From Acetobacterium sp. (GTDB taxonomy: Bacteria; Bacillota; Clostridia; Eubacteriales; Eubacteriaceae): DNA of 64,000 bases. The first letter of the stretch is position 1, and each line of letters begins with the position of its first letter. Made by a program: the position numbers and the translations under genes. Location of the stretch: NCBI RefSeq assembly GCF_036508315.1, contig NZ_DATCHP010000025.1:95427-159426 (forward strand), given 5' to 3'. This document shows, piece by piece, positions 3,611 through 52,902 of this stretch. The notes under the pieces were generated by a model, which saw nothing but the letters and a program-made list of their open reading frames with translations, ran no database searches and was not told the DNA's origin.

Positions 3611-3735
3611 CTTTTATTAAGTTATGTATAATTTTCTTTATTATATACTAATCAATTAGGAATGTCTATATTTTTTATACTGGATTTTATTATTCATTTA
3701 AATTCTTTCAGCACCTATTAGAATTTAAGATTTTT

Positions 3736-9026: not shown

Positions 9027-9305
9027 ATGAAAATCGTCCAAAAAACAAGGGAAAATCTAAAAAAATGTTTATGTATGAAGTGTCCCAGCTACGTTTTTGC
9101 CTGTAAAATAAAGTCCATGCCAGGTAATGTGATTTTAAGGGTTGGAGATATGGAAAATAAAATCCATGCTGAAGCACTGTTTTGCGCCTATGAACCAAGT
9201 AATTGTATTGATGAACTAAGAGGCTGTCTCTGCGAAGATTGCGAAGTGCTATTGGATAATGACCTTGAAAACGGATTTTATTGTAAAGTGGATGGTGGCA
9301 AATAA
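9027..9305 (+). CDS. Cys-rich small protein, DUF2769-like
   Basis: 92 aa with CLCMKCPSY and CLCEDCE motifs. RBS gaggaaagagg lies upstream. The family assignment is from memory. Confidence 0.5.
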   Translation: MKIVQKTRENLKKCLCMKCPSYVFACKIKSMPGNVILRVGDMENKIHAEALFCAYEPSNCIDELRGCLCEDCEVLLDNDLENGFYCKVDGGK

Positions 9306-9531
9306 ATAATAGTTATTGTCTGCAATTATTTTTTGAACATAATTCTAACTTAATTACAAGTTATTGTCCAGAGTTGTACATAAAACTGTCATTGAATAAT
9401 GACAATTCTATTTTTTCAACTTTTTCAGTCCATCCGTATATTTTCTTAAATAGTCTTCGAGCGTTATCTTTGTGCAAAGCTCCTCTATTAATTTATATGG
9501 TATGTTTTTCATATTATTCTAATCAATATCT

Positions 9532-11739: not shown

Positions 11740-11764
11740 GTTCGCAACCTTTCTTTATCTGCTT

Positions 11765-11793
11765 ATATTACATTCGCTCATGTTATATGTCAA
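11765..11793 (-). promoter_or_regulatory. Sigma-70-type promoter of copB
   Basis: The minus strand reads TTGACA (11793-11788), a 17-nt spacer tataacatgagcgaatg, then TAATAT (11770-11765). It lies about 25 nt upstream of the copB ATG. Confidence 0.6.
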
Positions 11794-11926
11794 AAATGGG
11801 AAGGTATTTTCATGTTTCTTACAATATCTATATTTCTTTCTGATTGATTATATATAAATTTTTACCCGATTAGTATTATTTGAAACACGCATGTAATAAA
11901 CAAACTTCTGTTTTTAATTTATTTTT

Positions 11927-12814
11927 CTAAAGTATGATTGATACCAGTAATCCAAAAGCTACAGCTAAATGATATTTTACTCCGACCTTACCAATAAGAC
12001 CCATAGTCCTGCCTTTTGTATAACTGTTTTTATCATAAGACAAAAAATCAAATATGGATTTGTAAGGGAAAAATATAAAAACAGTTACTAATACAACAAT
12101 AGGATAGATATGGACTAAAAACAAGACAAATGTTAATACCAATAGCATTATTACATTAAAAATCCAAAGTCTCTCAGTATTTTTGACTCCTAATAAAATA
12201 GGTAGTGTTTTTCTTCCAACTTCTCTATCCTCTTCGATATCACTTAAATTATTAGACAGCAATATCGTGGCAATAAATAGTGCTGTAGGAATTGCAACTA
12301 AAACTGTATTTAAATTAACAACACCAGACTGTATATAAATCACTGTTGTTGTTATGCCAATCCCCATGGTTACTCCAGCTACGATTTCACCAATTGGAGT
12401 ATATGAAATAGGGAAAGGTCCGGATGCATATGAAATCGAAACAATATCTCCAATAATTGCAATGAGAATAATATAGTAACTTGTTTGTCCAGCAATAAAA
12501 ATACCAATCATTAAAGCGATAAGTTGAAATAAAAATATTATAAACAACACTTGTTTGGGAGTAATCTCTCCGCTTACTAAAGCTTTTTCATCACCACTTT
12601 TTTTGCTGTCCGCTCCACGTTTAAAATCAAAGTAATCATTGATCATATTAGTGGCACTTTGAATAAGTATCATAGCTACTATTAACAATATAAGATAAAT
12701 AACATTAAACTTTCCAAAAGCATACTTTGAATAAATTGAGCCTAGAATTACAGGAACAGTTCCTGCAACAAGGGTTTTTATATCCATAAGCTTTATGATT
12801 GACTTGAAACTCAT
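11927..12814 (-). CDS. menA: 1,4-dihydroxy-2-naphthoate polyprenyltransferase (UbiA family)
   Basis: 295 aa, polytopic, with NDYFDFKRGAD and a second Asp-rich DIEEDRE motif. It is the last gene of the men block. Confidence 0.85.
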   Translation of the reverse strand: MSFKSIIKLMDIKTLVAGTVPVILGSIYSKYAFGKFNVIYLILLIVAMILIQSATNMINDYFDFKRGADSKKSGDEKALVSGEITPKQVLFIIFLFQLIALMIGIFIAGQTSYYIILIAIIGDIVSISYASGPFPISYTPIGEIVAGVTMGIGITTTVIYIQSGVVNLNTVLVAIPTALFIATILLSNNLSDIEEDREVGRKTLPILLGVKNTERLWIFNVIMLLVLTFVLFLVHIYPIVVLVTVFIFFPYKSIFDFLSYDKNSYTKGRTMGLIGKVGVKYHLAVAFGLLVSIIL

Positions 12815-12838
12815 TCTTTACCTCTCCTCAGCAAAAGA

Positions 12839-13228
12839 CTAATCTCTATTTGACTTAATAATAGCATTTGTAATTGTCATATATGAAATTAAGGCATTAT
12901 TTTCATCAAACATCTCAACACTCCAAACATGAGATGTTTTCCCTCTATGTAATAGCTTGCCTTTTGCTAAAATGTAACCTTCTATTTTTTTAGGTTTCAT
13001 ATGGTTTGCAGTAATCGTTTGGCCCACTGCCACTTGATCTTTATTTATCTTTTGAAGTGAAGAATAGCCTGTTATAGTTTCTCCAAAGGCAATTGTTGCA
13101 CCTCCATGTAAAAAGCCGAAGGTCTGATTATGAAATTGCGTTAAATTCATTTTAGCTTCAAGTTCGCTTTCATAAACATAAATGTATTCTATATTTAAGC
13201 CCTCTATTAAATTCATGCTACTCACCAC
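12839..13228 (-). CDS. Hotdog-fold (PaaI-type) thioesterase, probable DHNA-CoA hydrolase
   Basis: 129 aa with FLHGGATIAFGET. It sits between menC and menA. The alternative start M5 is at 13216. Confidence 0.65.
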   Translation of the reverse strand: MVSSMNLIEGLNIEYIYVYESELEAKMNLTQFHNQTFGFLHGGATIAFGETITGYSSLQKINKDQVAVGQTITANHMKPKKIEGYILAKGKLLHRGKTSHVWSVEMFDENNALISYMTITNAIIKSNRD

Positions 13229-14327
13229 CTATTTTAATATAGTCTATTGTATACTTTTCTAATGCTGCCTCATCAATCTCGACGCCTAACCCAAAGCCTT
13301 TAGGTACTTTAATTATACCATTTTGTGCAATAATTTCCGGTTTAATGATATCTTTTTTAAAGTAACGCTTTGATGATGAAAGGTCACCAGGGATATAATT
13401 ATCATTTAAGCTGGCTAAATGAACATGCAATATTTTAGAAATGCCACTTTCAACCATGCTTCCAATCCAATACTTAATATTATTTTGCCTGCATAGGTCA
13501 ATCATTTGCTTAGCATAGTAAATTCCGCCAACACGACCTACTTTTATATTCAACACCTTAAGTGCTTTTAACGAAATTGCAGTTTTCAAGTCATTAATTG
13601 TTTGAATGCTTTCATCCAGACATATTGGCGTACAAAGCTCTTTTTGAAGTTTTTGATATCCCAAAAAATTTTCTGTATTCAGCGGTTCTTCTATACATAG
13701 CAAATTAAATTCATCTAACTCTTTTATTTCATTAATTTGATCAAACTGATAACTTCTGTTGGCATCTGCCAGCAGTTGAATATTAGGATAATTTTCTCTG
13801 ATAGCCTTTAACTTTATGAAGGCATCCTGGGGTTTAATCTTTATTTTAAAGCGAATATATCCTTCCTTTTGATAATCTTCAATTTGTTTTATAATAACTT
13901 TAATATCCAAATCACCAAGCACAACACCTGCATATATCTCCTCATTGGTTTCTTCATTAAATACACATTTCATAATGGGTAGCTTGTTTCTCCTGGAATA
14001 TAAATCTACCAAAGCATTTTCGAGGCCCGCCAGAGCCATTGGGTATTCCATATCTAAATTTTTATGCAAATCAAAAGGATGCTCCATATCTTTATGAATG
14101 ACATCTTTAATATATTTATTTATTAATACCTGCTTAGAAGCTCCTAATGTTTCATGGGTATAAAAAGGTTCATTAAAAGAAACAACTTCACCATAACCCT
14201 TATTTTTAAGTTCATCCTCAACTTTAATTACAATTGTTTCACGACACTTTATAGCAGCTTGTGATGTTTTGAAATCGAAATTCAAAGGCATTTTAATATG
14301 AAAAAGTTCAATTTGTTGAATTTGCAT
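13218..14327 (-). CDS. menC: o-Succinylbenzoate synthase (enolase superfamily)
   Basis: 369 aa with the FKIKIKP, LLADANRSY, CIEEP and CLDES metal-ligand pattern. men operon context. Confidence 0.8.
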   Translation of the reverse strand: MQIQQIELFHIKMPLNFDFKTSQAAIKCRETIVIKVEDELKNKGYGEVVSFNEPFYTHETLGASKQVLINKYIKDVIHKDMEHPFDLHKNLDMEYPMALAGLENALVDLYSRRNKLPIMKCVFNEETNEEIYAGVVLGDLDIKVIIKQIEDYQKEGYIRFKIKIKPQDAFIKLKAIRENYPNIQLLADANRSYQFDQINEIKELDEFNLLCIEEPLNTENFLGYQKLQKELCTPICLDESIQTINDLKTAISLKALKVLNIKVGRVGGIYYAKQMIDLCRQNNIKYWIGSMVESGISKILHVHLASLNDNYIPGDLSSSKRYFKKDIIKPEIIAQNGIIKVPKGFGLGVEIDEAALEKYTIDYIKIGGE

Positions 14328-14338
14328 TTACGCACCCC

Positions 14339-15679
14339 TTATAAATCCCTTTTCAGTATTTTCCCTACTGAATTTTTAGGAAGTTCTTTCATATGAATAA
14401 TTTTTTTTGGGATCTTATATTTTGCTAATTTATTTGAAAGATATTCAAATATTTCATATTCATTTAAGGTGGAAACCACATAAATTATAGGAACCTGTCC
14501 CCACTTTTCATCTTTAAGACCTACCACTGCACATTCATTTATCTTCGGGTGCGCATATAGAATATTTTCAATTTCTTTCGGATAAATATTTTCGCCGCCA
14601 GATATAATGATGTTTTTACGGCGAGCAATTATATTTAAAAAACCATCTTCATCTAAATATCCCACATCTTCTGTATTAAAATAACCGTCTATGTTTTCTT
14701 CACCTATATATCCATCCATTAACATAGGACTTTTAATTAAAATTTCACCTATTCCTTTTTCATCAGAGTTTTCAATACGGATATCTACATTTTCCAGTGG
14801 TATTCCTACAGAATCAATTTTTTCCGGATATTCTAATACAGAAAAAGTAGTAGACTGGCTTGTTGTCTCTGTCATTCCATAGGTTTTATATATTGGGATA
14901 TTTCTCATGATGCTTTTTTCTACTAAAGCTTTGGGAATAAATTCACCGCCTACCAATACTACCCGTAATTTATGTTTATCTATTCTCTCAACAATCCTAT
15001 TTAACATGGTTGGCACAATGGATATTATATTTACAATCCCCCTTTCTATTAAGCTTAAAATTTGTTCTTCATCAAATTTTTCCAATATAGTAACTTGAGT
15101 CCCGTTGTATAAGCTTCGCAATAAGATCGTTAATCCACTAATATGATACATGGGTAACACCAAAAGCCACTTATCCGTCAATGTTACCCCAATGCTTTTC
15201 TGTGATGCCTTTACATGTGCAGAGAACTGTTTCCATCTAAGAGGAACCGATTTGAATTCCCCAGTAGTAGCACTTGTATTCATGATAACAGCAATGCTTT
15301 CGGCATCAAACTCTTCTATTAATTTTATATCTTCCTTTTCACTTTTGTAGACTTCATTAAAGGATATAAATTTATTGTCATGGGAAAATACTACATTAAT
15401 TTTTATTAAATTCAATTGACTTCTTATTTCTTGCTCTGTCAAATGAGTATTTAACATCAGCACTTCTTTACCCGAAAATTGGAGGGCTAAAAAAAAGAGC
15501 GCCATGTCAACTGAGTTATTAGAATAAACAGCAACTCTTCTCTCAGTTTTTACATAGGATGACAATTTTCCAGCTAATTCCGTTACACGTTCATAAACTT
15601 CACAAAAAGTTAAATCATTAATAAACTTTTTATTGGAGCTTTCACTTTTATGTTTTTTAAGCCAATTCATATCTCTCAC
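14339..15679 (-). CDS. menE: o-Succinylbenzoate-CoA ligase
   Basis: 446 aa with the adenylation motifs NTSATTGEFKSV and YKTYGMTE and a C-terminal GKILKR. Confidence 0.85.
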   Translation of the reverse strand: MRDMNWLKKHKSESSNKKFINDLTFCEVYERVTELAGKLSSYVKTERRVAVYSNNSVDMALFFLALQFSGKEVLMLNTHLTEQEIRSQLNLIKINVVFSHDNKFISFNEVYKSEKEDIKLIEEFDAESIAVIMNTSATTGEFKSVPLRWKQFSAHVKASQKSIGVTLTDKWLLVLPMYHISGLTILLRSLYNGTQVTILEKFDEEQILSLIERGIVNIISIVPTMLNRIVERIDKHKLRVVLVGGEFIPKALVEKSIMRNIPIYKTYGMTETTSQSTTFSVLEYPEKIDSVGIPLENVDIRIENSDEKGIGEILIKSPMLMDGYIGEENIDGYFNTEDVGYLDEDGFLNIIARRKNIIISGGENIYPKEIENILYAHPKINECAVVGLKDEKWGQVPIIYVVSTLNEYEIFEYLSNKLAKYKIPKKIIHMKELPKNSVGKILKRDL

Positions 15680-32006: not shown

Positions 32007-33272
32007 CTAATTAATATTCTTGATTGTACTTTCAATTTTCATGAACACATCAACCAACATATTGTCAAATTGAGTACCGCTGTTTTTTTGTATCTCTGCA
32101 ACTGCTGCATCATGGCTAAATCGCTTTCGATATGGCCGGTCCGTCGTCATCGCATCATAGGTATCTGCAATCGCAATGATCCGGGAACCCAGTGGAATTT
32201 CCTCACCTTTGATCCCACATGGATAACCATTGCCTGAAAATCTTTCGTGATGATGTCGAATAATCGGTAACGCTTCAGCAAGAAAACCAACATTACTGAG
32301 AATGTTTATCCCGATATCTGGATGCTTTTTAATTACCTCATATTCTTCATCCGTCAGTTTACCATTCTTATTCAAAATATGATCGGGTATTCCTATTTTT
32401 CCGATGTCATGGAAGAGCCCGGCATATTCAAGAATTTTCAGATTTTCTGCTGTCATATTAAGCTCTCTGCTTAAAAGCATCGAGATTTTTGATACTCTTT
32501 CAGAATGACCAGCGGTATCCGGATCTCTTGCATCAACAGCATTGGACAAAGCAAATACTGTGTTTAGATAGGCATCATCCAGCTTTTTTAGAGATAATTC
32601 TATTTCAGACTTTTGATTAATAAGTTCCTTATTTTGATTCAGAAGCGTTTGTGATGTTTTATAAAGTATGCCAACCAGCAATAAAAAAAGAATAATAAAT
32701 CCACCAAAGACTGTTAATGCTATCACTTGTACGATCATATTCGCATGTTCACTGATATTTTTTTCAAGGATTTGTAAAACAGCGACGCCCTCAATTTTAC
32801 CGTCATATAGTATGGGTTCATAAACGTTTATGACAAGCTTACCTGTATTCTCTTCTTCAACATTATTGAGCCGATAAGCATCCGAAACGACGAAGGGTAC
32901 CTCACTCTTTAATATTTTTTCAAGATCTTTATTGTTCAGCTGTTCCCTTGTAAAATCAGAATTATCTGACATGATCTCTGTCTTCTCCTGATTGATGAGT
33001 ATGATTGATTGAATGTCATATAAATCCATGGTTTCAATGATATTTGACTTAATTTGAGATGCCTTATCATTGGATATATTATCAGTAAAGTCTGATTTTT
33101 CCAGATTGTTTTTAATCACTGTATTGATTGTAACTTTAGCCACTTCTTCTAAATTTCCCAGTTTATCATTTTTAATATGTTGATATATAGCCAGGGAAAG
33201 TACAATCCCAATCAAGACAAATGCGAACATACTGTATAAGGCAAAAATCTTTATTAATGGATATCTTTTCAT
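32007..33272 (-). CDS. Membrane sensor HD-GYP domain protein (c-di-GMP phosphodiesterase type)
   Basis: 421 aa: TM, extracytoplasmic region, TM, coiled coil, then HD-GYP (LFHDIGKIGIP, HHERFSGNGYP). Confidence 0.85.
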   Translation of the reverse strand: MKRYPLIKIFALYSMFAFVLIGIVLSLAIYQHIKNDKLGNLEEVAKVTINTVIKNNLEKSDFTDNISNDKASQIKSNIIETMDLYDIQSIILINQEKTEIMSDNSDFTREQLNNKDLEKILKSEVPFVVSDAYRLNNVEEENTGKLVINVYEPILYDGKIEGVAVLQILEKNISEHANMIVQVIALTVFGGFIILFLLLVGILYKTSQTLLNQNKELINQKSEIELSLKKLDDAYLNTVFALSNAVDARDPDTAGHSERVSKISMLLSRELNMTAENLKILEYAGLFHDIGKIGIPDHILNKNGKLTDEEYEVIKKHPDIGINILSNVGFLAEALPIIRHHHERFSGNGYPCGIKGEEIPLGSRIIAIADTYDAMTTDRPYRKRFSHDAAVAEIQKNSGTQFDNMLVDVFMKIESTIKNIN

Positions 33273-34042: not shown

Positions 34043-34222
34043 ATGGGAACAATCGTGTTAATTTTAATATTTATCGGACTCATGTTTGTAATGTCTAAAT
34101 TCGGTGTTGGATGTTGTGGTGCCCATTTTGGTCATAACCATCATAGTAGCACAAAAAATATTGAAGGTTCTGGAAAAGAACAAATTTCTAAGCATGATTT
34201 TGAAGAATTTTTTAAACTTTGA
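34043..34222 (+). CDS. 59-aa membrane peptide with a GCCGAHFGHNHH metal-ligand-like motif
   Basis: Not in the ORF track (59 aa, shorter than any ORF listed there). Hand translation: MGTIVLILIFIGLMFVMSKFGVGCCGAHFGHNHHSSTKNIEGSGKEQISKHDFEEFFKL. RBS cagAGGAGaactaa-ATG. Confidence 0.5.
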   Translation: MGTIVLILIFIGLMFVMSKFGVGCCGAHFGHNHHSSTKNIEGSGKEQISKHDFEEFFKL

Positions 34223-34289
34223 ATGATATTCATTTAATACTATTCTGTCATTTAGCGGTAATTTGAATGTCTGTTTAAAAGACACAAAA

Positions 34290-34378
34290 AAAGGGTAGTG
34301 CCGATACTGCCCTTTTTTTCGATTATACTCTTCTTCATCGATTTCACCACGAGCATATCGCTCATGCAAAATTTTCAA
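34290..34378 (-). pseudogene. SHOCT-domain gene remnant
   Basis: It encodes ..KILHERYARGEIDEEEYNRKKG and is nearly identical at the DNA level to 36770-36840 (..ILNERYARGEIDEEEYNRKKAELRKL). There is no upstream membrane part. Confidence 0.55.
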
Positions 34379-35252: not shown

Positions 35253-35865
35253 TCATGCTATTTCGGCAGGGTTACAATAGAACAACTTACCTTCGTTTAA
35301 ATGGCTTTCTACCTCAAACGACCCCTCATGCGCTGTTACAATAGACTTAACAATGGCAAAACCAATACCCGATCCCCCGGTTTTACGGTTACGTGATTTA
35401 TCTGCACGATAAAAGCGCTCAAAAACAAAGGGAAGCTCTTCCTCTGGAATACCGATGCCACTATCTTTAATGCCTAACCTTATAATCGCCATCTGATATC
35501 TGTTTAGTAACACTGACGGTTTCTAATATAAGTCGGCTGAGTCGTTTGGCCAAAAAAGCGCCAATCACAACCGAAAAAGCAAGAGAAAAGATACCAATTC
35601 CGAGAAAGATCATGTTGAGTGCATTTAAAAACTGAAAATCATTCTCACTGAGAAAATAAGGCCCAAAATAGCTGATGTTTACCGTACCGATAGTTTTGTT
35701 ATCTTTTGTGATATCAATGGTTTTAGAAGTAAACTTACCTACTCCGTTCGGATATTTCATCATCATTCTTTGAAAGATATCGTTCATCATCTGGGAACAC
35801 AAAACTGTATCACGTGCTTCAGCATCCCATATGCTTCGATTTTCCATATCATCAACGACAAGCAC
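35253..35865 (-). pseudogene. Two-component system scar: response-regulator start fused to a sensor-kinase periplasmic/HAMP part, then frameshifted onto the HATPase G1-G2 region
   Basis: ORF 35467-35865 begins (R)KKVLVVDDMEN, which is receiver-like. It runs straight into a sensor domain, a TM segment and a HAMP start (ISDGDYKVR). ORF 35253-35513, in another frame, carries only IKDSGIGIPEEELPFVFERFYRADKSR..GGSGIGFAIVKSIV. The H-box and N-box are absent. Confidence 0.7.
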
Positions 35866-35911: not shown

Positions 35912-36127
35912 CTAAACTACTTTAAAATCCTCTTCTTCAATTGCGAGTTTAAACTTGTCAGGAGATACCTTGTCAGGATCATACTCAATTACAACCGTTT
36001 TTCCAGTCAAATCAACATTGACACTTGCTACGCCATCCAGCTCACCAACAGCATTTTTCACTGCCTTTTCACAGTGAGAACAAGACATACCTTCAACATT
36101 CAGTGTTATTTTTTCCATTTCTTTCAC
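35912..36127 (-). CDS. copZ: Copper chaperone CopZ (HMA domain)
   Basis: 71 aa with LNVEGMSCSHCEKAVKNAV. RBS gagAGGTGaaagaa-ATG. Confidence 0.85.
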   Translation of the reverse strand: MKEMEKITLNVEGMSCSHCEKAVKNAVGELDGVASVNVDLTGKTVVIEYDPDKVSPDKFKLAIEEEDFKVV

Positions 36128-36749: not shown

Positions 36750-36992
36750 CTAAAGCTTTCTCAGCTCAGCTTTTTTTCTATTATACTCTTCTTCATCAAT
36801 TTCACCACGGGCATATCGCTCATTCAGAATTGCGAAAGCATTGTCAATTGAACGTGATCCGTCTTTAGCGTTTGTGCTCGTAAAGTGATGAATAATGAAA
36901 TAAACAGCAATGATAACCAACACTAATAATAAAAACAGGCCGAACATCATAACACCGCCGAATCCGCCACCATATCCTATTCCATACATCAT
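36750..36992 (-). CDS. Small membrane protein with a C-terminal SHOCT domain
   Basis: The likely start is the ATG at 36992 after AAGGAGGAattcatt. It has a Gly-rich N-terminus, one TM segment, then ILNERYARGEIDEEEYNRKKAELRKL. Confidence 0.65.
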   Translation of the reverse strand: MMYGIGYGGGFGGVMMFGLFLLLVLVIIAVYFIIHHFTSTNAKDGSRSIDNAFAILNERYARGEIDEEEYNRKKAELRKL

Positions 36993-37060
36993 AATGAATT
37001 CCTCCTTTATTTTTATATCATATTCCAAAATAATCCATTATCTCTAAAGATAACTTTGTT

Positions 37061-37738
37061 TCAAGATCTGATGTTTTTTGTCATTCTGTCAAATTCTTCC
37101 TTTGTAATTTCCCCATTGGCAACCCTTCTGGCCAATATTTCAGAGGTCGTGTCCTGGACTGCTGTTTTCTTTTTTGATCTGAGAACTGCAAAAACGATTA
37201 ATGCAATAATAGCGATTAACAACAGGAGAACAAAACCAGTCATAATACCGCCATATGCCAGATAACTAAATATACCTGATATACTCCATCTTGAATCGGT
37301 GCCTGAATTATTGCGGTTTATATTATCATCATTCCACCCACGAGCAGGGTTTGAATTATTATACATCATGCCTCCGCTCATGATATTCATCATGCCGTTC
37401 GGATAATCCGAGAGATAGTTGAGCCCAACATTAATATGAAAGGTTTTAAGCGATTCTGACCCATCCCCACCCAGTCTGTTATCCATTTGGTCGTGCATGG
37501 CTGTATTGCCAATCATTGCCTCCATCACAGAGTCACCCAATTCTTCAAGCTTTGCCTGGCTGACTTTGCTTACATCAATCTGATCTGAACTACTGATTCC
37601 CTGTTCTGCTCTGATTTCTGCTAATATGGTATCCACACTTTTTAGTTGCATTTCGTCTGCAAGGGAAACTCCGGCAAGAACAAAGCTGGTAAATATTGAT
37701 AAGATTAGAATTAAAATAATTTTCTTCATCTTTCTCAT
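37061..37738 (-). CDS. Secreted/membrane protein with a Met-rich ectodomain, a TM segment and a C-terminal SHOCT domain
   Basis: The likely start is M20 at 37738, after aaAGGAAGtg. It has a signal peptide ending in SLA, a Met-rich region (MMNIMSGGMMYNN), a TM segment, and ILARRVANGEITKEEFDRMTKNI. Confidence 0.6.
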   Translation of the reverse strand: MRKMKKIILILILSIFTSFVLAGVSLADEMQLKSVDTILAEIRAEQGISSSDQIDVSKVSQAKLEELGDSVMEAMIGNTAMHDQMDNRLGGDGSESLKTFHINVGLNYLSDYPNGMMNIMSGGMMYNNSNPARGWNDDNINRNNSGTDSRWSISGIFSYLAYGGIMTGFVLLLLIAIIALIVFAVLRSKKKTAVQDTTSEILARRVANGEITKEEFDRMTKNIRS

Positions 37739-38127
37739 CACTTCCTTTCTTCTGATATTACTTTTATACCCTAAGCGAATTATCTCAAACACCATTTCAG
37801 GAAAATAAGATCAATCCTTAATTTTTTTTAATTTTTACAACTGTTCCGATTTTTACAATATTACTTGATGCAAAGCGTGTAATATTAGATTTAGCAAGGA
37901 CAAAGTCGTCTGGGTTACAGTGATCAAAAACATGATTGAAGATTTTTATGAACTGGCCAATACCATCCCTGAAAATACGTGCATCTTTTAAAAGAGTCAG
38001 AATATAAAAAACGAATCATTGTAATTTAATTTACAAACCGAAAGCGAAGGTGCTCTGCGCCGATTATCAGTGTTTTATGCTAATTGGTTCGCTGGCAGGA
38101 GTCTTTAGCAACTTATCTCGAGCAGCA

Positions 38128-45309: not shown

Positions 45310-46346
45310 TTATTGTGCAATTTCATCAACGATTGTTAAAAATCGCTTTTCGTAAAATTCCAATGCCTTTGCCTGTTCTATTTTTACTTGGTTACTGATG
45401 GTTTCATAATTGTCAAATAACAATTCCACAATGCGTTTATCCAATAATTTTTTGTCTGTTTGACTTTTTAAAATCTTATGAATGGCATCTTTATCCATGC
45501 CTTTTCGATAGGGTCTATCTTCCGATATTGCAGTAAATATATCTGCAACCGTTATTATTCTGGAACCAGTGCCAATTTCTTCAGCTTTACAGTGAAACGG
45601 ATAACCGCTTCCATCTAATTTTTCATGATGATAAGCCGCCCACTCTGCAATGCGTTGCAATCCACCAATTGAATATATGGTATTGTATGTATAATAGGTA
45701 TGGCATCTTATAACGCCATACTCTTCAACTGTTAATTTTTCAGGTTTCTCAAGAATACTGTTTGGGATGATTAATTTTCCGATATCATGAAAATTTCCTG
45801 CGATTCGCATTGACTTGACATCCAACTCTGCCATTCCAAATAATTCAGATAACACAACCGCACATTCTGATACCCCTGAAGTATGGGTAGCCGTAAATCT
45901 TGACTTGAAATCGATGAGATCTCGATATAGGTTAGAAATGAGTGATATATCTTCCAATCCTATTTGTACATCAGTAAATGGTCCATTATTTAATAATAAT
46001 AAATATAATTGCGATGATGATTTCTTACGGTCTTAGAAATCTTTTTTAACCAGGGTATCTGTTCTAATAACAGCTCTCCCTTTATGGTATGACGATCATA
46101 ATTTGATTCTGCAAAACTATGAATTGACAATTTTTCCTCAACTGTTACTGCTCCAATATCATGTAATAATGCTGCAGTAAAAATGTTTTCAATCATCTCC
46201 GGTTCTAAATTAGCTCTTTGTGCAACCGCAAGTGCAATGAATGCTGTGCGATGTTGGTGCTGAGCGGTTAAAGGATTTGCCAAATCGATTACTTCGGATA
46301 AAGATAATAGCAAATTATTCAAGTTTACCGATAATTGTCTTTTCAA
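45310..46346 (-). pseudogene. Tandem HD / HD-GYP protein split by a frameshift (ORFs 45990-46346 and 45310-45957)
   Basis: The upstream ORF carries the first HD domain (LLHDIGAV...VRNHH) and ends in an AT-rich run. Reading one frame over from the HH codons gives QLYLLLLNNGPFTDVQIG-LEDISLISN.., which continues into the second ORF (NFHDIGKLIIP, HHEKLDGSGYP). Confidence 0.55.
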
Positions 46347-46392
46347 AAAATCATCTCCCTTTTAAGCAATTGTTTCCACTGGTGCAATAAAG

Positions 46393-46596
46393 TTAATCCA
46401 TGCATCTTTCACAGGTCATTGCATCGTAAGTGTCAGCAACAGTGATTATCCTCGATTCAAGCAGTATATTTTCGCCCTTAAGTCCATTAGGATATCCGCC
46501 GCCATCCCATCTTTCATGTTGCCCTGGGTGAAGCTGCTGGCAGCGAGGGGTGCTAACCCTTTTAGGGTGTTTTTGACCATCTCTCATAATCGGCAT
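46393..46596 (-). pseudogene. Orphan C-terminal HD-GYP fragment
   Basis: It encodes only ..[35 protein letters not shown]... No HD motif or N-terminal part lies upstream. Confidence 0.65.
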
Positions 46597-46731: not shown

Positions 46732-48729
46732 TCATGTTGAAGCAACAGCCACCCGATCTTTTCCTTCATTTTTCGCACGATATAGAGCGATGTCAGCGCT
46801 TTTTAAGAGCGCATCACAGGTCAATCCGTGCTCTGGAAAAGCGGCAACTCCTAAGGAGAGTGTACATTTACTCAGTTGCTTATCCCAGTAAGATATTTGA
46901 AGTTCCTTGACATTCTGGCGCAGTTCCTCTGCACGCTGACGGCTGTCCTCCAGTGTCGCCTCAGGGAGCACAAAGACAAATTCGTCCCCACCGTAACGGG
47001 AAACAATATCGCCTTCACGAGTGTGTTTTACAAGAAAGTCTCCCAGCGCATGGAGCAAGGCATCCCCTCCACCATGTCCAAACGTATCATTAAACTCCTT
47101 GAAATGATCAATATCAAACATAATCAGCCCAACCGGACCTTTCTTTCGCTCAGCCCGGCTCAGCTCTCTTACCAAGTTTTCTTCCATATAGCGCCGGTTA
47201 TACAGGCCGGTGAGCGGATCGATGATAGACTGCTGGCGCAATATCTCCCTGAGTTTCAGGTTTGTCACGGCGAGTGCTATATAGTTAGATACTTCTTCCG
47301 CCAAATGCTGCTGGTGTTCAATAAAGAATGATACATCTTCATTTTTTATTGACATGCGATGAAGATGTAACAAACCCATTGCCTCACCCTGTGTTATCAT
47401 GGGAACGCAGTAACAAATAGCGATATGGGGATTTGTTATATGATTGCAGAGCATTTCATTACCGAAGGGTTCTATGACCAGATGTGGCCTCCTGCTCCTG
47501 AGTGCCCGACAGTCACTTTTCTCAAAAAACCGCTCGCTAAACACTGATTCACCCCAACGGATGACCTCCTCAACCAAATTGTTGGAGGGGCAAACCAGAC
47601 AGAGAGCACCCTGCATATCTGGAAATATTCTTTGGTTAAACTGCGCACTTAACGCGTATATCTCATCCAGACACTGAGCGCCCTGAAGCAGTTCACCCAT
47701 CTCGTTGAGCAGGCTAATCTCGCTGTTCCATATCTCCAGTTTTTTTACCGAGCCGGCAAGTTTCTCATTCGCTTCGTGAAGCTCCTTATCCGCCTGCTTG
47801 CGTTTCGTAATATCCAATATGGATGCTACGCTTTTCATAGTGCCCGGAATCATGGCAATCGTAATATACACATCTAACAATCTCCCCTGTATGTCAACAG
47901 CTCGAAATTCATAATTTATTGGTGCCATATCCAAATTTGCTCGGCGTAAACGGTGATTCTTCATGATTATCTTCTGATCATCTTTATACACAAATTCGAT
48001 AATTTTTTTCTTGCCTTCGATCTCCTCCTTACTGCATCCAAAAATCCTGCAGTACTCCGCATTGACCATAGAAATGGTCATATCTTCCTCAATAATGATT
48101 GTCGCCGATCCGGTGGTTTCAAAGACGGAACGGTATTTTTTCTCACTCTCTTTTAATTCAATACTAGTCTGATGTAACAAATCATACGCCCTGCTGAGAC
48201 TGGTGTATCCCAATATCTCATTTTTTAACAATAAAGCTACGTAGTTAAAAAATGTTTGCAAATGCTCCTGCAGTTCAGAGACGCTTATTTGCATATTTTC
48301 CATCTTTAAAACGCCAATCATATCTTTGCCGACCTGGAGTGGAAATACCCATGTATAAGCTTTTGTGAATTCTGCGGTCATCATCCTGGTATCGCTGAAA
48401 TCATGTTCATGTTCCATAGACTTGCCGGTTTCAAATACCTTTTTTACCAGAGGATCATCGATGCTGTCGAACTGAGCTTTTTTACCGAATGTATCAGCAT
48501 AGTGATATTTATGATCAATCATGTAATAGATCATAATATTGATACCGCCAATATTACTCAGTAAAATCATCAACATATTTTCGATGGTGGCTTCAAGGCC
48601 CGGCGCAGTACTTAATTGATCGATCAGATGGGTGATCAATTGAAGATTTGATTTTTCCTTCGCCAAGAGCTTAAGACGTTTTTCCATGGAAGTGAATGCT
48701 TCTTTTGATATGGAAATCATTTCAGTCAT
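46732..48729 (-). CDS. Cytoplasmic GAF-PAS-GAF diguanylate cyclase (GGDEF)
   Basis: The start ATG at 48729 (GGAGGatcgctg upstream) overlaps the DUF1638 stop (TGATG). 665 aa. PAS region around SVFETTGSATIII; active-site RYGGDEFVFVL; I-site-like RQRAEE. The longer ORF-track N-terminus overlaps the upstream gene and is rejected. Confidence 0.85.
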   Translation of the reverse strand: MTEMISISKEAFTSMEKRLKLLAKEKSNLQLITHLIDQLSTAPGLEATIENMLMILLSNIGGINIMIYYMIDHKYHYADTFGKKAQFDSIDDPLVKKVFETGKSMEHEHDFSDTRMMTAEFTKAYTWVFPLQVGKDMIGVLKMENMQISVSELQEHLQTFFNYVALLLKNEILGYTSLSRAYDLLHQTSIELKESEKKYRSVFETTGSATIIIEEDMTISMVNAEYCRIFGCSKEEIEGKKKIIEFVYKDDQKIIMKNHRLRRANLDMAPINYEFRAVDIQGRLLDVYITIAMIPGTMKSVASILDITKRKQADKELHEANEKLAGSVKKLEIWNSEISLLNEMGELLQGAQCLDEIYALSAQFNQRIFPDMQGALCLVCPSNNLVEEVIRWGESVFSERFFEKSDCRALRSRRPHLVIEPFGNEMLCNHITNPHIAICYCVPMITQGEAMGLLHLHRMSIKNEDVSFFIEHQQHLAEEVSNYIALAVTNLKLREILRQQSIIDPLTGLYNRRYMEENLVRELSRAERKKGPVGLIMFDIDHFKEFNDTFGHGGGDALLHALGDFLVKHTREGDIVSRYGGDEFVFVLPEATLEDSRQRAEELRQNVKELQISYWDKQLSKCTLSLGVAAFPEHGLTCDALLKSADIALYRAKNEGKDRVAVAST

Positions 48730-49319
48730 CAGCGATCCTCCGTCTTCCGATAAAAGGTGTTTAGCAATACTGATTCGAGATGTTCTAACGATACAGAGTT
48801 CCATCGAAGCGGCAGATCGACCTCTTTGGCAACATCCATCGCCTGCAGTTCGAATTCCCCGGAGCAGGGGGTCTTGATTCCTAAAATATATTTTCGGTCT
48901 TCGTGGAAAATATCCTTGATCATTTGTTGGTTGTTTCCAAACGTTTTCCGTATGGTTTGTTCCCAATGCAGGGCCCAGTCTTCAAAGAGGAAAAACGCAC
49001 CGTTGTTCAGTTCTTCCATATACCGCTCTGTCCCCAGCAGCATTTCCACGCAATTCTGACCGGGAGTCCTGAAGGTATGATGATCCTGCAATATTTTGTC
49101 CATAAGGGGATGACATTCGCCGTAAAAAACAACTGTATTTCGGTCTGAATACTGTTGCAGAACGGCTGTCAGGCCCTTTGACAGCGCCTTAAAATTAACA
49201 TGAAGTGATGAATTGATAAAAACAGTATCTACCGCCCAATCGTTTTTGGAAATTATATAGTTGATCTCGTTTTTTAAGATACCGCAACCTACCAGCAGAA
49301 GCTTGTCAGTATTCTCCAT
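48729..49319 (-). CDS. DUF1638 domain protein
   Basis: 196 aa with LLVGCGILKNEI and VFYGECHPLMD. The family is recalled as being linked to corrinoid methyltransferase loci. Confidence 0.6.
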   Translation of the reverse strand: MENTDKLLLVGCGILKNEINYIISKNDWAVDTVFINSSLHVNFKALSKGLTAVLQQYSDRNTVVFYGECHPLMDKILQDHHTFRTPGQNCVEMLLGTERYMEELNNGAFFLFEDWALHWEQTIRKTFGNNQQMIKDIFHEDRKYILGIKTPCSGEFELQAMDVAKEVDLPLRWNSVSLEHLESVLLNTFYRKTEDR

Positions 49320-50347
49320 TATAACTTACCGAACTCATATGCCGCCTCTAGCATCGCCCTGATATTCTGTTCCGGGATGGAATAGGGCATGAGCTGGGTT
49401 CCGAAAAAGAATTTTCCGCCCTGCCGACCTGCATCGATGATCCGTTTGACCTCATTCCTGATTTCTTCTTTTGACCAATCGATCAGTTTGATATCATTAA
49501 AGCTTCCTCCGCACAAAGCTCTGCCTGTAATTATTTTTTTACCTTCGGTGATATCGTCCATAGCGCTAAACAAACAGGCGCCAATACCGGTTCTTTCCAG
49601 CACCATTTCTATTACGGAATTCATCCGGGCTCCGCTGCAATTATATACTAATCCCTGGGTACCTCCAGGTTGCAAATCCTTTTCCATCCAGTTCAGGGAA
49701 AGTTCTTTTATCAATTTCATGGGAAGAAAATCGGTGGAACCAAATGGGTTGACATATACAAAAACGTCAGCACCCGCGTTTCGATAGGCGCTTGTTTCCT
49801 TGCGGAAAAATTCGGAGCACTTGGTTAGCAGCTCATCCCGTACTTCCACCGGACCCATCAGCAGCAGTTCCATCCACTTTTCTATTCCCATAAGAAGAGT
49901 CGGGAGTGTCATAGAGGCCGATAAAAAAGCAACTATGGGATATCTTCCGCCGGCCTCCTTCTTCAGTATGCGCAAACATTTCAGCTCTTCCTGAAACGCC
50001 GGGTGACTTGATATATCATCAGGAATCTGAAGCTTATGTATGTCATCATAGGTCTTCAAAATCATTTGTCCTACATTGGGAGGACCGTCCTGGGCAAAAA
50101 CAATTTCTTTGCATCCGAGTAATTCAGCTTCTTTACCGAAGTAAAAAAGACTCAAGAGATTATCATAGCCGTATTTTTCGCGCATTTTCAGCTGTGCCTC
50201 TGCAACGTACTCACCGTTGGAATAATACTCCTGCAGCGTCATCCCCAGTTCTTTGGCGCCCTGGTCACTCATGAAGCAGAATACCGGAATGCGGTCACAG
50301 GGAGTACCACTCATCGCGGCAATCAGTCTATCCATTCCAGTTATCAT
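49319..50347 (-). CDS. URO-D/MtaA-family (methylcobamide methyltransferase-like) protein lacking the HxC...C zinc motif
   Basis: The start ATG at 50347 overlaps the corrinoid gene stop (ATGA). 342 aa with MDRLIAAMSGTPCDRIPVF, a typical family N-terminus. It has VYNCSG where the paralog 60934-61926 has LHICGY. Confidence 0.7.
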   Translation of the reverse strand: MITGMDRLIAAMSGTPCDRIPVFCFMSDQGAKELGMTLQEYYSNGEYVAEAQLKMREKYGYDNLLSLFYFGKEAELLGCKEIVFAQDGPPNVGQMILKTYDDIHKLQIPDDISSHPAFQEELKCLRILKKEAGGRYPIVAFLSASMTLPTLLMGIEKWMELLLMGPVEVRDELLTKCSEFFRKETSAYRNAGADVFVYVNPFGSTDFLPMKLIKELSLNWMEKDLQPGGTQGLVYNCSGARMNSVIEMVLERTGIGACLFSAMDDITEGKKIITGRALCGGSFNDIKLIDWSKEEIRNEVKRIIDAGRQGGKFFFGTQLMPYSIPEQNIRAMLEAAYEFGKL

Positions 50348-51009
50348 TTTTGCACCTCCTTTATTAAATCCTTGATGATCTGGCTGCTCGTAATTGCGTT
50401 CTCGGTCCATGCATCTGCCTGTACTACTTTATATAACTCGTGATCATACCGATAAGGAGCGCCACCCACAATGATCTTGATTTGTTCCTCAAGACCTCTC
50501 TCCTTAAGGATTTGTCTGACCTTAAGGCAACCATTCTCTCCTCTGGCAGTATGCACCATCATGGACGATATCCCAATTAGCTGGGCTTTGTTGGCAACCG
50601 CTTCATCAACAAAACGTTCCGGCGGTACACTCAGTCCCAGGTCAATCACATCAATCATCATAGCTTTCAGGCAACCTATCACGATCCTTTTCCCCAGCCC
50701 ATGAAAATCCCCTGATGAAGTACCTATTACAACGCAGCCAACAACTTTCGGAGCTTGTTTAAAAAGAGGTATCATTTCTTCGGTAACCGCTGCAGCTATT
50801 TGAGCTGTAAAAAACATCTGCGACAGACAAGTACTATCATCCTCACTAATAGATTGAATCGCCTTTTCTAATATGGGGATCACAATCTCGAATACGACAT
50901 CTTCGGCGGCTACGCCATTATCGATAGCTTTATGAACTATTTCTAAGACCCGATTCTGATCGGTGTCATAAACCGCTTCTTGAAACTCCTCTAAGACTTT
51001 CTGTAACAT
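50344..51009 (-). CDS. Corrinoid (cobalamin)-binding protein, MtaC/MtbC-like
   Basis: 221 aa: an N-terminal helical cap plus a Rossmann B12 domain with GDFHGLG (DxHxxG), ISSMM and IIVGGAP. Confidence 0.85.
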   Translation of the reverse strand: MLQKVLEEFQEAVYDTDQNRVLEIVHKAIDNGVAAEDVVFEIVIPILEKAIQSISEDDSTCLSQMFFTAQIAAAVTEEMIPLFKQAPKVVGCVVIGTSSGDFHGLGKRIVIGCLKAMMIDVIDLGLSVPPERFVDEAVANKAQLIGISSMMVHTARGENGCLKVRQILKERGLEEQIKIIVGGAPYRYDHELYKVVQADAWTENAITSSQIIKDLIKEVQK

Positions 51010-51237
51010 GTCATTGCTCCTTTCCTCGTCTGAATCATCAGTTCTTGTGAAAAAGGTATTAGGTTAATATATTACGTTTTTTCAAGCTACTAAAGTAGAC
51101 TTCAAGAATTAAGCTATAGAACTGTGGCAGTGGTCATTGCGTTAACTTAAAAATTAGTATTGGATATATTCATTATATATTTATGGTATATACTATGCAA
51201 TATAAATTACAAGAAATACTTGGCTGCTGGAACCCAC

Positions 51238-52902
51238 TCAATCTTCTTTCATTTCTGAGGAATAGATCTTATATCCATTTCCACCCTGACGCTTGGCTTC
51301 ATACATCGCAGAATCAGCCTTATTAATCAGCATGTCTGCCTCAAATCCATGCTCAGGGAATAGACTGATGCCGATACTGGCTCCAATCAGTAATTGGTTT
51401 TCCTTATAGGTAAACGCGGTGCTCAATGTTTTCAAAACATCACCTGCAAATTTTTCAGCATTGACAATGTCTTTTAAATTTCTGAGTATGATTATGAATT
51501 CATCTCCTCCCATTCGACTGATGGTATCCGTTGACCTGATAATACTTTTTAATCTCACTGCCACCATTTTAAGAATAAGATCTCCGGCTTCATGGCCATA
51601 ATGATCATTCACACTCTTAAAATGATCCAAATCTATAAAAAGAACTGCAAATTTTTCATTTTTATCATCCAGTAAGCTCTCAAGATCTTCCAACATTTTT
51701 TTTCGATTAAAAAGTTCTGTCAGCGCATCATAATAGATAAAATGACGTATCTGATCTTCCGCAAGCAGTCTTTCCACAATCTCATTTTTAAGTTTCAGAT
51801 TTGTTTCTTCCAATTTCAATGTATATTTTTCTTGTATTTCAGCTATCATTTTTCTTTCAGAAACATCATGCAATAGAGCAAGTATCCCTAATATATCTTT
51901 ATATTCATCCTGTATAACGGTAGCTGATAATTCACAGACAAGCGCCTCTTTATGTCCCCGGTGTAAATCAACTTCAATACTCGTCACATTTCCTGTCTGC
52001 ATGATCGAATTAAAATTATAATTTCTGAAATTGATGATGGTATCCAATGAATTTTCCTTTAAGTCCTTATCATAAAAGCCCGTTATACTGAGCGCCGCTT
52101 TATTACAATTTTTCACAAGGAAATCTTCTCCTAATATGAAAATCGGTTCATTGACCGCTTCAAAAAGATATTCCGATACCAGTTCCCAAGAAATTGACAT
52201 CATTTTATATTTATTAATGGCGTACCAAATGCCACCCATTCCAACAGTGAGTGTTATGATCCCAGACGGGAAAATCATAATGCCCATTGGCGGCAAAAAC
52301 AAATCTGTGGTTAGTGCCAAAGCAACACTGATTAAGCTGGTGATTAAAATAATTTTTATCTGTTTTTTAATCCGATTCTTATGAGCCTTTCTCATTTTGA
52401 AATATATAATGACAATACTTATTGCCATTATAAGTACATTATATATACTAAAAACAGTACCAATCGGTGTCATCGTATATAAATTATCTACAAAGCCGTA
52501 AACTTCATGACTGACTACCTGTGAGGGTTCAAACATTAAATTACTGATGAAAAATATGGTTGAAATGATATATAATGCATATCGCATTTTTGAGGTGGCG
52601 TTTTTTTGATTTGCATCATTAAGTGAAAGTGCAAAGGATAACCATAGTGCATTAAAAAAACACCAACCTAATGCAGAAATGATTCTCCAGCTGTTTGCAA
52701 TTTCTACATTGGGAGAAATTAACATGAATGCATAGCCGATCGCCCAAAAGCTCGTAGAAATGCATATAACAAAAAATATTGTGTTGCTTTTTGATCTATT
52801 TTCTCTCTTTAAATTAGATATGCCCATCAATAAGTAAAAGATAAAACATATGCATAATATTGTAAACAACATTGTTTGAATAGTATCCCATCCCAGCATC
52901 AC
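51238..52902 (-). CDS. Membrane (7TM-type N-terminus)-PAS-GGDEF diguanylate cyclase
   Basis: 554 aa: about seven TM segments, a PAS region, a coiled coil, then RMGGDEFIIIL. Confidence 0.85.
   Translation of the reverse strand: MMLGWDTIQTMLFTILCICFIFYLLMGISNLKRENRSKSNTIFFVICISTSFWAIGYAFMLISPNVEIANSWRIISALGWCFFNALWLSFALSLNDANQKNATSKMRYALYIISTIFFISNLMFEPSQVVSHEVYGFVDNLYTMTPIGTVFSIYNVLIMAISIVIIYFKMRKAHKNRIKKQIKIILITSLISVALALTTDLFLPPMGIMIFPSGIITLTVGMGGIWYAINKYKMMSISWELVSEYLFEAVNEPIFILGEDFLVKNCNKAALSITGFYDKDLKENSLDTIINFRNYNFNSIMQTGNVTSIEVDLHRGHKEALVCELSATVIQDEYKDILGILALLHDVSERKMIAEIQEKYTLKLEETNLKLKNEIVERLLAEDQIRHFIYYDALTELFNRKKMLEDLESLLDDKNEKFAVLFIDLDHFKSVNDHYGHEAGDLILKMVAVRLKSIIRSTDTISRMGGDEFIIILRNLKDIVNAEKFAGDVLKTLSTAFTYKENQLLIGASIGISLFPEHGFEADMLINKADSAMYEAKRQGGNGYKIYSSEMKED

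Follow-up and report, generated by a model that had tools for sequence, protein, structure and literature searches.

To our knowledge, the only B12-based sensing described so far is by a B12 domain that is fused to its output and acts through direct photochemistry or by binding a ligand, and we know of no case in which a corrinoid methyl-transfer system serves as a co-sensor. Among the described systems, AbDPcob is a fused adenosylcobalamin (AdoCbl)/biliverdin photoreceptor-diguanylate cyclase that has no accessory enzymes (PMC10979010), and photoglobin/B12 operons were predicted computationally to combine stand-alone B12-binding proteins with kinases and with GGDEF, HD-GYP and SpoIIE outputs, in a paper that leaves URO-D, methyltransferase and DUF1638 unmentioned (PMC8717448). 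In Phaeobacter inhibens, DUF1638 and a RamA-like activase are both required for the split B12 methionine synthase and for methionine synthesis, the DUF1638 gene adjoins one for a B12-binding protein that stands alone, and among alpha-proteobacteria the two proteins are found together (PMC5764234); in Ruegeria, DUF1638 and a RamA-like protein are both induced on methylated osmolytes (PMC12478193). The Phaeobacter data are the only functional or genetic evidence for DUF1638. Here we analyze a stretch of 64,000 nucleotides from Acetobacterium sp. (the window, by which the whole stretch is meant), whose minus strand carries in series the genes of a corrinoid protein, a URO-D-like protein and a DUF1638 protein (the trio) and of a diguanylate cyclase, an enzyme of cyclic di-GMP (c-di-GMP) signaling. 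The domain formed by residues 1 to 190 of this cyclase is here named GAF_N. With moderate confidence, we regard the trio as the sensory input of the GAF_N protein. No description of this cassette was found in the open-access literature and bioRxiv (subscription-only papers lay outside the search), in agreement with an earlier note on this DNA, made from the letters alone, that had proposed an undescribed system.

The conservation of the cassette was assessed with an alignment of DUF1638 homologues as query against one genome per species (185,579 species), which gave 181 relatives. The best 80 of these 181 loci were taken with 10-kb flanks, all of their open reading frames (ORFs) were searched with the window proteins, and 79 loci were assessable for GAF_N. 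Among these best 80 loci, the corrinoid, URO-D and DUF1638 genes stood in the same order wherever the contig reached far enough, and the gene directly after DUF1638 opened with GAF_N in 62 of the 79 assessable loci. In these 62 loci GAF_N started at residue 1 of the partner protein, and the approximately 187 N-terminal residues of the partners matched residues 1 to 190 of the window cyclase with E values of 1e-30 to 1e-62. By median identity to the window (59% for the corrinoid protein, 63% for URO-D, 52% for DUF1638 and 47% for GAF_N), the trio was better conserved than the partner domain. Stop and start codons overlapped between DUF1638 and partner genes in 50 of 61 loci and between corrinoid and URO-D genes in 54 of 56, a recurrence that, on these counts, is more than chance. 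In the closest relative (L084, 74 to 77% identity), DUF1638 is followed by GAF_N with the same PAS domain. The reverse test agreed: all four proteins picked by GAF_N similarity alone directly follow genes for B12-binding, URO-D and DUF1638 proteins, including one (P0148) from a subgroup only 27 to 29% identical to the GAF_N of the window.

The hosts comprise Bacteroidota, Ignavibacteriota, Geobacteraceae, Desulfuromonadaceae, Desulfobacterales, Syntrophorhabdaceae, Gallionellaceae and other Nitrosomonadales, Methylobacter, Methylomonas, Methylovulum, Mariprofundus, an anammox bacterium, Treponemataceae, Omnitrophota, Hydrogenedentes, Acidobacteriota, Actinomycetota and Verrucomicrobia. The survey of gene neighborhoods that the earlier note had suggested therefore finds the linkage again in many phyla, and a linkage peculiar to this strain, which that note had named as a result that would speak against its idea, is contradicted by the 62 loci and the four reverse look-ups. 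Its description of the trio as a methyl-transfer module of anaerobes proved too narrow, since the hosts include aerobic methanotrophs and microaerophilic iron oxidizers. At least one c-di-GMP gene lay near the cassette in 27 of the 54 loci of at least 15 kb, at 3.7 such genes per 100 kb, which is probably several-fold above the densities typical of such genomes.

DUF1638 and GAF_N are also found in one polypeptide. A single ORF of an Omnitrophota locus (L005) encodes DUF1638, GAF_N, HisKA and HATPase_c, and among the best 150 GAF_N representatives (clustered at 50% identity) the five whose GAF_N begins only around residue 200 (P0216, P0293, P0304, P0311 and P0314) all carry DUF1638 fused N-terminally to it. 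DUF1638, which is joined to GAF_N in this way in several lineages, is proposed as the physical bridge between the corrinoid module and the signaling protein.

To size the GAF_N family, phmmer was run exhaustively against 1.84 billion representative proteins, and the domain was found in 424 of them (394 at E <= 1e-10), nearly always at residues 1 to 187; the exhaustive search was needed, as a word-indexed search gave 2 proteins with GAF_N alone and 29 with a 40-sequence alignment. No Pfam family was found in GAF_N of the window cyclase or across 72 relatives, one of which (L006) gave a sub-threshold GAF_2 match, and the GAF_N profile found nothing among PDB sequences. An AlphaFold2 (AF2) model built from 31 sequences (mean predicted local distance difference test score [pLDDT], 82.9) has a long N-terminal helix (residues 9 to 39), an alpha/beta core and a long C-terminal helix (residues 154 to 199). 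When this model was compared with the PDB by Foldseek, the top matches, at least 30, were all GAF domains (E = 2.7e-7 to 1e-4; template modeling [TM] score, 0.5 to 0.6), among them 3P01 (E = 2.7e-7), NlhH, PDE5/2/6, PtsP, NifA and phytochrome GAFs. GAF_N is a GAF domain by predicted fold only, unrecognized by sequence. Pfam and NCBIfam searches support the domain calls of the earlier note except the N-terminal GAF: of its GAF-PAS-GAF architecture for the cyclase, the PAS and second GAF domains stand by Pfam and the N-terminal GAF stands by AF2 and Foldseek as a fold but not at the sequence level. The residues R18, K26, G61, G62, N64, Y68, Y69, D92, W127, P130, L131, K142 and N170 are invariant or nearly so in GAF_N, and the alignments hold no conserved Cys or His, which speaks against a tetrapyrrole bound covalently or through a metal ligand and against a thiol that accepts methyl groups. 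An Ada- or chemotaxis-like transfer of methyl groups onto GAF_N was considered and is unlikely for the same reason.

The outputs joined to GAF_N vary. As read from Pfam scans of 20 partner proteins and profile searches of all 65, 53 partners are histidine kinases (23 of them hybrids with receiver domains), 2 besides that of the window are GGDEF proteins (L018 and L044), and 10 show PAS/GAF arrays only or are cut by contig ends. Across 72 GAF_N representatives, HATPase_c was present in 50, a receiver in 17, GGDEF in 3, HD-GYP in 1 and PocR in 1, and one further representative has a SpoIIE plus HATPase_c_2 output. In the smallest partners (L029, L040, L047 and L059), GAF_N is the sole sensor domain and directly abuts HisKA. 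GAF_N is read as a sensory input domain because one conserved N-terminal domain is joined to interchangeable outputs, and by this comparison the window cyclase is a rare output variant in a family whose usual output is a histidine kinase. The earlier picture of a corrinoid module hard-wired to a GGDEF enzyme with GAF and PAS sensors is upheld by synteny and fusions as far as the coupling to a signaling protein goes, but GGDEF is not the conserved element. The active-site motif and the RxxD I-site of the window cyclase are intact (REGD-IVSRY-GGDEF, residues 571 to 584), from which it is predicted to make c-di-GMP. Two tandem GAF_N proteins follow DUF1638 in some Geobacteraceae and Desulfuromonadaceae (L030, L044 and L076); the pair of L044 consists of one GGDEF-type protein and one kinase, so that one module may feed two outputs.

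GAF_N was absent from 17 of the 79 assessable loci. In nine of these, mostly from Gallionellaceae (L014 [8298-14672], L020, L026, L038, L042, L045, L051, L052 and L056), DUF1638 is followed by an ETR1_N-PAS kinase, a receiver and then a REC-PAS-PAS-GGDEF protein. ETR1_N, an ethylene-receptor-like membrane domain, was matched by Pfam in L014 only (2.9e-30) and was judged to be present in the other eight from the shared N-terminal PHGYC(L/I)SWQP...IALAYFTIPL. Four other loci have PAS-kinase-receiver proteins, with REC-HD-GYP next in three, and the remaining four have no sensor. The trio, as these neighborhoods indicate, is nearly always beside signaling genes, and GAF_N is not its only possible partner. 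In the nine loci with the ETR1_N-PAS kinase, which are from Gallionellaceae and Nitrosomonadales, the corrinoid and URO-D proteins are fused as one protein of 563 amino acids (aa). In "Candidatus Methylobacter oryzae" (L080, 9318-10597), DUF1638 comes immediately after the corrinoid gene, with neither a URO-D nor a GAF_N gene present.

Clustering of all flanking ORFs brought out one further conserved gene, which encodes a RACo-type activase of about 535 aa (Fer2, Raco_middle and RACo_C_ter) directly 5' of the corrinoid gene; it was adjacent in about 36 of the 63 loci with enough upstream sequence. No other conserved gene was found by this clustering, whether an MtaB/MttB-type or pterin methyltransferase, a transporter or a DNA-binding regulator, and the remaining clusters were antisense or alternative-frame shadow ORFs of cassette genes. 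Genes seen in single loci and not recurring were a ferrochelatase gene (L086, 7671-8624), a pair of genes for a methyl-accepting chemotaxis protein and CheW just upstream of the cassette (L088, 1436-3609) and a B12-binding radical SAM gene directly after the kinase (L089, 7450-8868). A RACo activase is needed only when a protein-bound corrinoid passes through Co(I), and its adjacency implies Co(I) methyl-transfer chemistry and not mere B12 binding.

In the window, direct reading gives four minus-strand ORFs in series (Table 1) whose stop and start codons overlap at each of the three junctions: ATGA at 50344-50347 (corrinoid/URO-D), TAATG at 49317-49321 (URO-D/DUF1638) and TGATG at 48727-48731 (DUF1638/cyclase). 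The ribosome-binding site of the cyclase, GGAGG, lies 7 nucleotides 5' of the ATG within the 3' end of the DUF1638 gene; AAGGAGG precedes the URO-D start and AGGAG the corrinoid start, and a clear Shine-Dalgarno sequence was not found for the DUF1638 gene. Two of the ORFs can be extended upstream in the ORF list; the shorter starts were adopted, which match the gene calls on three independent metagenome contigs with identical proteins as well as the N termini of homologues. Inside the block, promoter-like matches (40, versus 32.5 +/- 5.2 in shuffled sequence) and terminator-like matches (7, versus 7.3 +/- 2.6) were weak and at chance. The leader (51010-51237) matched no Rfam family, cobalamin riboswitch included, and no promoter could be pinpointed in it. 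The four genes are one operon, and on every one of these points (the overlapping codons, the site inside the DUF1638 3' end and the lack of an internal promoter or terminator) the earlier note had read the sequence correctly. It was right also in calling the block more GC-rich than its surroundings: the GC content of the four genes is 0.43 to 0.46 and that of their third codon positions (GC3) 0.42 to 0.50, compared with 0.375 +/- 0.041 and 0.32 +/- 0.065, respectively, for the remaining 40 genes of the window, whose overall GC content of 0.37 is that of a low-GC organism. Because the cyclase gene has the same bias (GC3, 0.46), the four genes were probably acquired together. All four proteins are singletons in 90% clustering.

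Table 1. Features of the cassette and its leader in the window, all on the minus strand
Feature	Position	Strand	Basis or remark
Presumed operon promoter region	51010..51237	-	AT-rich 228-nucleotide intergenic leader, 5' of corrinoid gene
Corrinoid (cobalamin-binding) protein, 221 aa	50344..51009	-	Helical cap and Rossmann B12-binding domain
URO-D-superfamily MtaA-like protein, 342 aa, without MtaA zinc site	49319..50347	-	Pfam URO-D
DUF1638 protein, 196 aa, proposed adaptor between corrinoid module and sensor domain	48729..49319	-	Pfam PF07796
Diguanylate cyclase, 665 aa, start MTEMIS	46732..48729	-	Direct reading, Pfam and NCBIfam
GAF_N (residues 1-190 of cyclase), with long N-terminal helix, GAF core and linker helix at the C-terminal end	48160..48729	-	AF2/Foldseek
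PAS domain of cyclase, residues about 193-317	47779..48153	-	Pfam PAS 6e-7, residues about 198-310; TIGR00229 1.5e-18
Second, canonical GAF of cyclase, residues 354-490	47260..47670	-	Pfam GAF 5e-10; GAF_3 1e-7
GGDEF output domain, residues 497-663, and stop codon	46732..47241	-	Pfam GGDEF (PF00990) 1.8e-48, residues 502-659; TIGR00254 4e-53

The corrinoid protein matches Pfam B12-binding (PF02310; 3e-19, 69.5 bits against a cut-off of 32.1), preceded by the helical cap B12-binding_2 (PF02607; 2.6e-5, 24.8 bits against 23). It has the His-on motif DFHGLG (DxHxxG; residues 101 to 106, window positions 50692-50709), of which D101, H103 and G106 are kept in at least 97% of 72 homologues, and its best PDB relatives are the methyltransferase corrinoid proteins 1Y80, 7XCN (MttC) and 3EZX (MtmC), with MetH next. 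It falls under the cut-off of every named NCBIfam equivalog (93.3 versus 370 for MtgC_2, 91.9 versus 215.3 for TIGR02370 and 85.1 versus 350 for MtbC); by these scores it is a distinct clade and none of the named corrinoid proteins (MtgC, MtbC, MtaC or pyl_corrinoid).

The URO-D-like protein matches Pfam URO-D (PF01208; 8e-45) over its full length (residues 4 to 338), and its sole PDB sequence match is MtaA (4AY7; 3.2e-14). In the alignment with 4AY7, the positions of His240, Cys242 and Cys319, which we take to be the zinc ligands of MtaA (H-x-C ... C), are occupied by Tyr, Cys and Thr; of 73 clade members, at least 97% keep the Tyr and about 60 to 90% the Cys, and the third position is Thr. 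C24, C79 and C124 are conserved to at least 97% in the clade. The protein also stays under the NCBIfam cut-offs (91.5 versus 235.4 bits for TIGR01463 and 82.9 versus 244 for NF004889). It is, on this alignment, a distinct zinc-less clade of the MtaA branch, and the label MtaA-like given to it earlier was right for its fold and nearest relative but not for family membership. HemE was rejected as its identity, since no HemE structure was matched at E <= 1e-3 despite the many in the PDB and no NCBIfam HemE model matched. Methyltransferase activity of this protein is plausible from its relationships but not assured.

The DUF1638 protein matches PF07796 over the complete profile (positions 1 to 161 of 161; 6e-26, 91.7 bits against a cut-off of 27) and has hundreds of homologues at 50 to 60% identity in unrelated lineages. 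C12, C69, H70 and C90 do not vary in the clade, and C152 is kept in at least 90% of its members, a pattern that suggests a metal or Fe-S site. Its AF2 model (pLDDT, 92.6) found no convincing fold in the PDB (best E = 1.4e-3, TM 0.40, generic alpha/beta proteins), and its profile gave only noise against PDB sequences.

These observations can be brought together in a cassette of five parts, namely, a RACo-type activase (in about half of the relatives), the corrinoid protein, the zinc-less URO-D enzyme, DUF1638 and the GAF_N signaling protein. Because it has only one methyltransferase-like enzyme, the module is unable to sustain a metabolic flux that would bring methyl groups from a donor to an acceptor in the cell. 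What it can do is set the balance of the corrinoid protein between Co(I) and CH3-Co(III) by how much of some methyl donor or acceptor is present, and the cobalt state is therefore proposed as the sensed variable. The URO-D-like enzyme would shuttle a methyl group between a small molecule and the cobalt of the corrinoid protein, which oxidants would trap as Co(II); the state of the cobalt (Co(I), Co(II) or CH3-Co(III)), with the matching cap-on or cap-off conformation, would report the availability of methyl donor or acceptor and the oxidant load. RACo, presumably encoded elsewhere in the organism of the window, and DUF1638 would maintain or restore the active state of the cofactor, and DUF1638 would dock on GAF_N and relay the cobalt state. 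GAF_N would then switch the C-terminal output through its linker helix, in the window by way of PAS, GAF and GGDEF, with c-di-GMP synthesis going up or down. We put forward only tentatively this full version, in which kinases, c-di-GMP enzymes or partner-switching phosphatases are driven by the methylation or redox state of the cobalt in a nonmetabolic corrinoid methyl-transfer machine, with a DUF1638-GAF_N contact as the readout. Our confidence in any particular signal (B12, methyl donor, redox or light) is much lower than that in the trio as an input.

Several points weigh against this proposal, which draws on sequence comparison and predicted structures. Cotranscription of a sensor with the enzymes that it regulates would yield similar synteny. 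The missing zinc ligands and the scores below every NCBIfam methyltransferase cut-off leave the methyltransferase activity of the URO-D-like protein not assured, and GAF_N offers neither a conserved Cys or His nor a recognizable ligand; only the fusions and synteny point to a mechanism through protein-protein contact. RACo is absent from the whole 64-kb window (tblastn with the RACo of L008 gave nothing at E <= 10). Finally, the trio can pair with other sensors or stand alone, as the loci without GAF_N indicate, and on metagenome contig L085 a member of the clade stands outside the trio context, followed by an SBP-PAS hybrid kinase.

Among the other explanations, the one that survives best, although we consider it unlikely, is an ordinary metabolic corrinoid methyltransferase operon with its own regulator, in which the trio would methylate or demethylate a growth substrate, or repair and load B12 for another enzyme, while the GAF_N protein would sense the substrate directly and regulate expression or lifestyle, the enzymes being no part of the sensor. 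Corrinoid protein, MtaA-like protein, RACo and DUF1638 are indeed standard parts of methyl-transfer metabolism, sensor genes often adjoin the operon under their control, and DUF1638 and RamA-like proteins are needed in Phaeobacter and induced on methylated osmolytes in Ruegeria (PMC5764234, PMC12478193). However, only one methyltransferase-like gene is conserved, and thus no full donor-to-acceptor pathway is encoded; no transporter or DNA-binding response regulator recurs nearby; and GGDEF, HD-GYP and SpoIIE outputs cannot directly autoregulate transcription. The stop/start overlap of the sensor gene in 50 of 61 loci, the DUF1638-GAF_N fusions and the near confinement of GAF_N to the position behind the trio likewise favor the trio as sensory input.

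An enzymatically resettable B12 light sensor, which would be a special case of the proposed mechanism with light as the signal, seems rather improbable to us. Light would break the Co-C bond of methyl- or adenosylcobalamin, RACo, the URO-D-like enzyme and DUF1638 would re-reduce and re-alkylate the cofactor in the dark, and GAF_N would read whether it is alkylated or dealkylated. The nearest solved relatives of the corrinoid protein are methyltransferase corrinoid proteins, however, and not CarH or photocobilin, whose structures 8J2W (1e-4, through the Rossmann domain) and 8J2Y are matched weakly. The AdoCbl-accommodating cap motif of CarH is Wx9EH, whereas residues 1 to 90 of the corrinoid protein, which form the cap, hold no Trp and no such motif. 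Pfam detects no globin or bilin domain in the cassette proteins of the window, and many hosts come, by their record titles, from groundwater, sediments and anaerobic reactors. These points stand against the fact that B12-binding domains are proven photoreceptors, that a B12-dependent diguanylate cyclase exists in the photocobilin AbDPcob (PDB 8J2Y; PMC10979010) and that a photosensory role has been predicted for B12-binding proteins whose operons include two-component genes (PMC8717448).

Slightly less probable still is that GAF_N binds as its cofactor a small molecule that the trio would synthesize or alter and that, from the ancestry of URO-D, could be a tetrapyrrole. A tetrapyrrole is the substrate of URO-D proper, bilins, heme and nucleotides are ligands of GAF domains, a heme oxygenase encoded next to a bacteriophytochrome provides a precedent, the URO-D-like protein is without the thiol-activating zinc site of MtaA, and the ferrochelatase gene of L086 lies beside a cassette. 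Nevertheless, GAF_N is without a conserved Cys or His for the ligation of heme or bilin, the URO-D-like protein is nearer to MtaA, its sole PDB match, than to HemE, methyl chemistry on a protein-bound Co(I) is what RACo and the His-on corrinoid protein suggest, and a diffusible product would not predict the fusion of DUF1638 to GAF_N. That a laterally acquired methyltransferase fragment landed fortuitously beside a cyclase gene without a functional link, for which the raised GC and GC3 of the block and the decayed HD-GYP genes just downstream could be cited, can practically be dismissed, as the GC3 of the cyclase (0.46) is elevated too, so that the cyclase came with the block, and the linkage is kept in 62 loci and in the closest relative, with all four reverse look-ups in agreement.

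The region of the window around the cassette is rich in c-di-GMP genes. A second diguanylate cyclase, with an N-terminal HisKA_7TM membrane domain, PAS and GGDEF, lies directly 5' of the operon (51238-52902, minus strand); because its GC content is as low (0.34) as that of the rest of the window, it is placed outside the acquired block. Directly 3' of the cyclase are three HD-GYP pieces (45310-46596, minus strand), namely, a 67-aa ORF that covers positions 103 to 143 only of the HD_5 profile, a 118-aa ORF that covers positions 3 to 109 and a 215-aa ORF with a complete HD-GYP domain and no receiver. By appearance these are c-di-GMP phosphodiesterase genes that have decayed or been rearranged, perhaps as a scar left when the block was inserted. 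A promoter-like site (TTGATA-17-TAGAAT with TG) is found 3' of the cyclase at 46684-46656, and a membrane HD-GYP protein is encoded at 32007-33272. Elsewhere in the window are a histidine kinase gene broken into two ORFs (35253-35865; probably a pseudogene), a gene for a CopZ-like heavy-metal-binding protein (35912-36127) and a SHOCT-like motif, 'ERYARGEIDEEEYNRKK', repeated in three small ORFs (34064-34378, 36750-37028 and the C terminus of 37061-37795). The sole Rfam family in the window is a molybdenum/tungsten cofactor (Moco) riboswitch (RF01055, 62 bits; 3503-3618, minus strand).

If the proposal is true, the sensing of a methyl-transfer state would be a new kind of sensory input, and a sensor made from a whole corrinoid enzyme system would open a new information route into two-component and c-di-GMP networks. 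It would mean that methyl donors, oxidants or light are sensed by B12 chemistry in Clostridia, Geobacter, methanotrophs and iron oxidizers, and it would give DUF1638 its first molecular role. With about 400 representative clusters, GAF_N itself makes up a GAF-like domain family that is new and outside Pfam, and through the cassette B12 methyl chemistry would extend to aerobic methanotrophs and microaerophilic iron oxidizers, in which such modules are not expected. Cultured hosts are available in Methylobacter tundripaludum, Methylomonas spp., Mariprofundus sp. and Desulfonema limicola, and the smallest versions of the cassette have a partner that consists of GAF_N plus a kinase only.

Within the cobalamin- or accessory-enzyme-dependent sensory inputs to two-component and c-di-GMP signaling, the cassette would stand at the far end of the category. 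With AbDPcob and CarH it would share the control of a signaling output by a cobalamin-binding domain (cap plus Rossmann fold). In those proteins, however, B12 domain and output share one polypeptide, the B12 domain works with AdoCbl (plus biliverdin in a globin-like domain) and no enzymes are required, whereas the cassette has a separate methyltransferase-type corrinoid protein together with a URO-D-like enzyme, DUF1638 and often RACo, and its output protein has its own GAF_N. The photoglobin operons differ in that their hallmark is a photoglobin domain beside the B12 domain, the cassette being without a globin. To the MtaABC/MtbA-type systems of methanogens and the bacterial betaine and O-demethylase systems with RamA or RACo, the cassette is alike in its parts, including the His-on corrinoid protein and the MtaA-like URO-D fold. 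It differs from them in that no substrate-specific methyltransferase 1 (MT1; MtaB/MttB type) or pterin methyltransferase is present in the conserved neighborhood, the zinc ligands of MtaA are missing, a signaling protein nearly always follows and the hosts include aerobic methanotrophs and iron oxidizers. The split methionine synthase of Phaeobacter inhibens resembles it in having a DUF1638 gene beside a corrinoid gene and a RamA-like activase (PMC5764234), but that system serves biosynthesis, comprises homocysteine and pterin methyltransferase parts and has no sensor gene, whereas the DUF1638 of the cassette is followed by or fused to GAF_N. Histidine kinases are known to co-sense with accessory proteins, and in "trigger enzymes" the catalytic state of an enzyme or transporter is read by a signaling protein encoded next to it; to these the likeness of the cassette would be a conceptual one.

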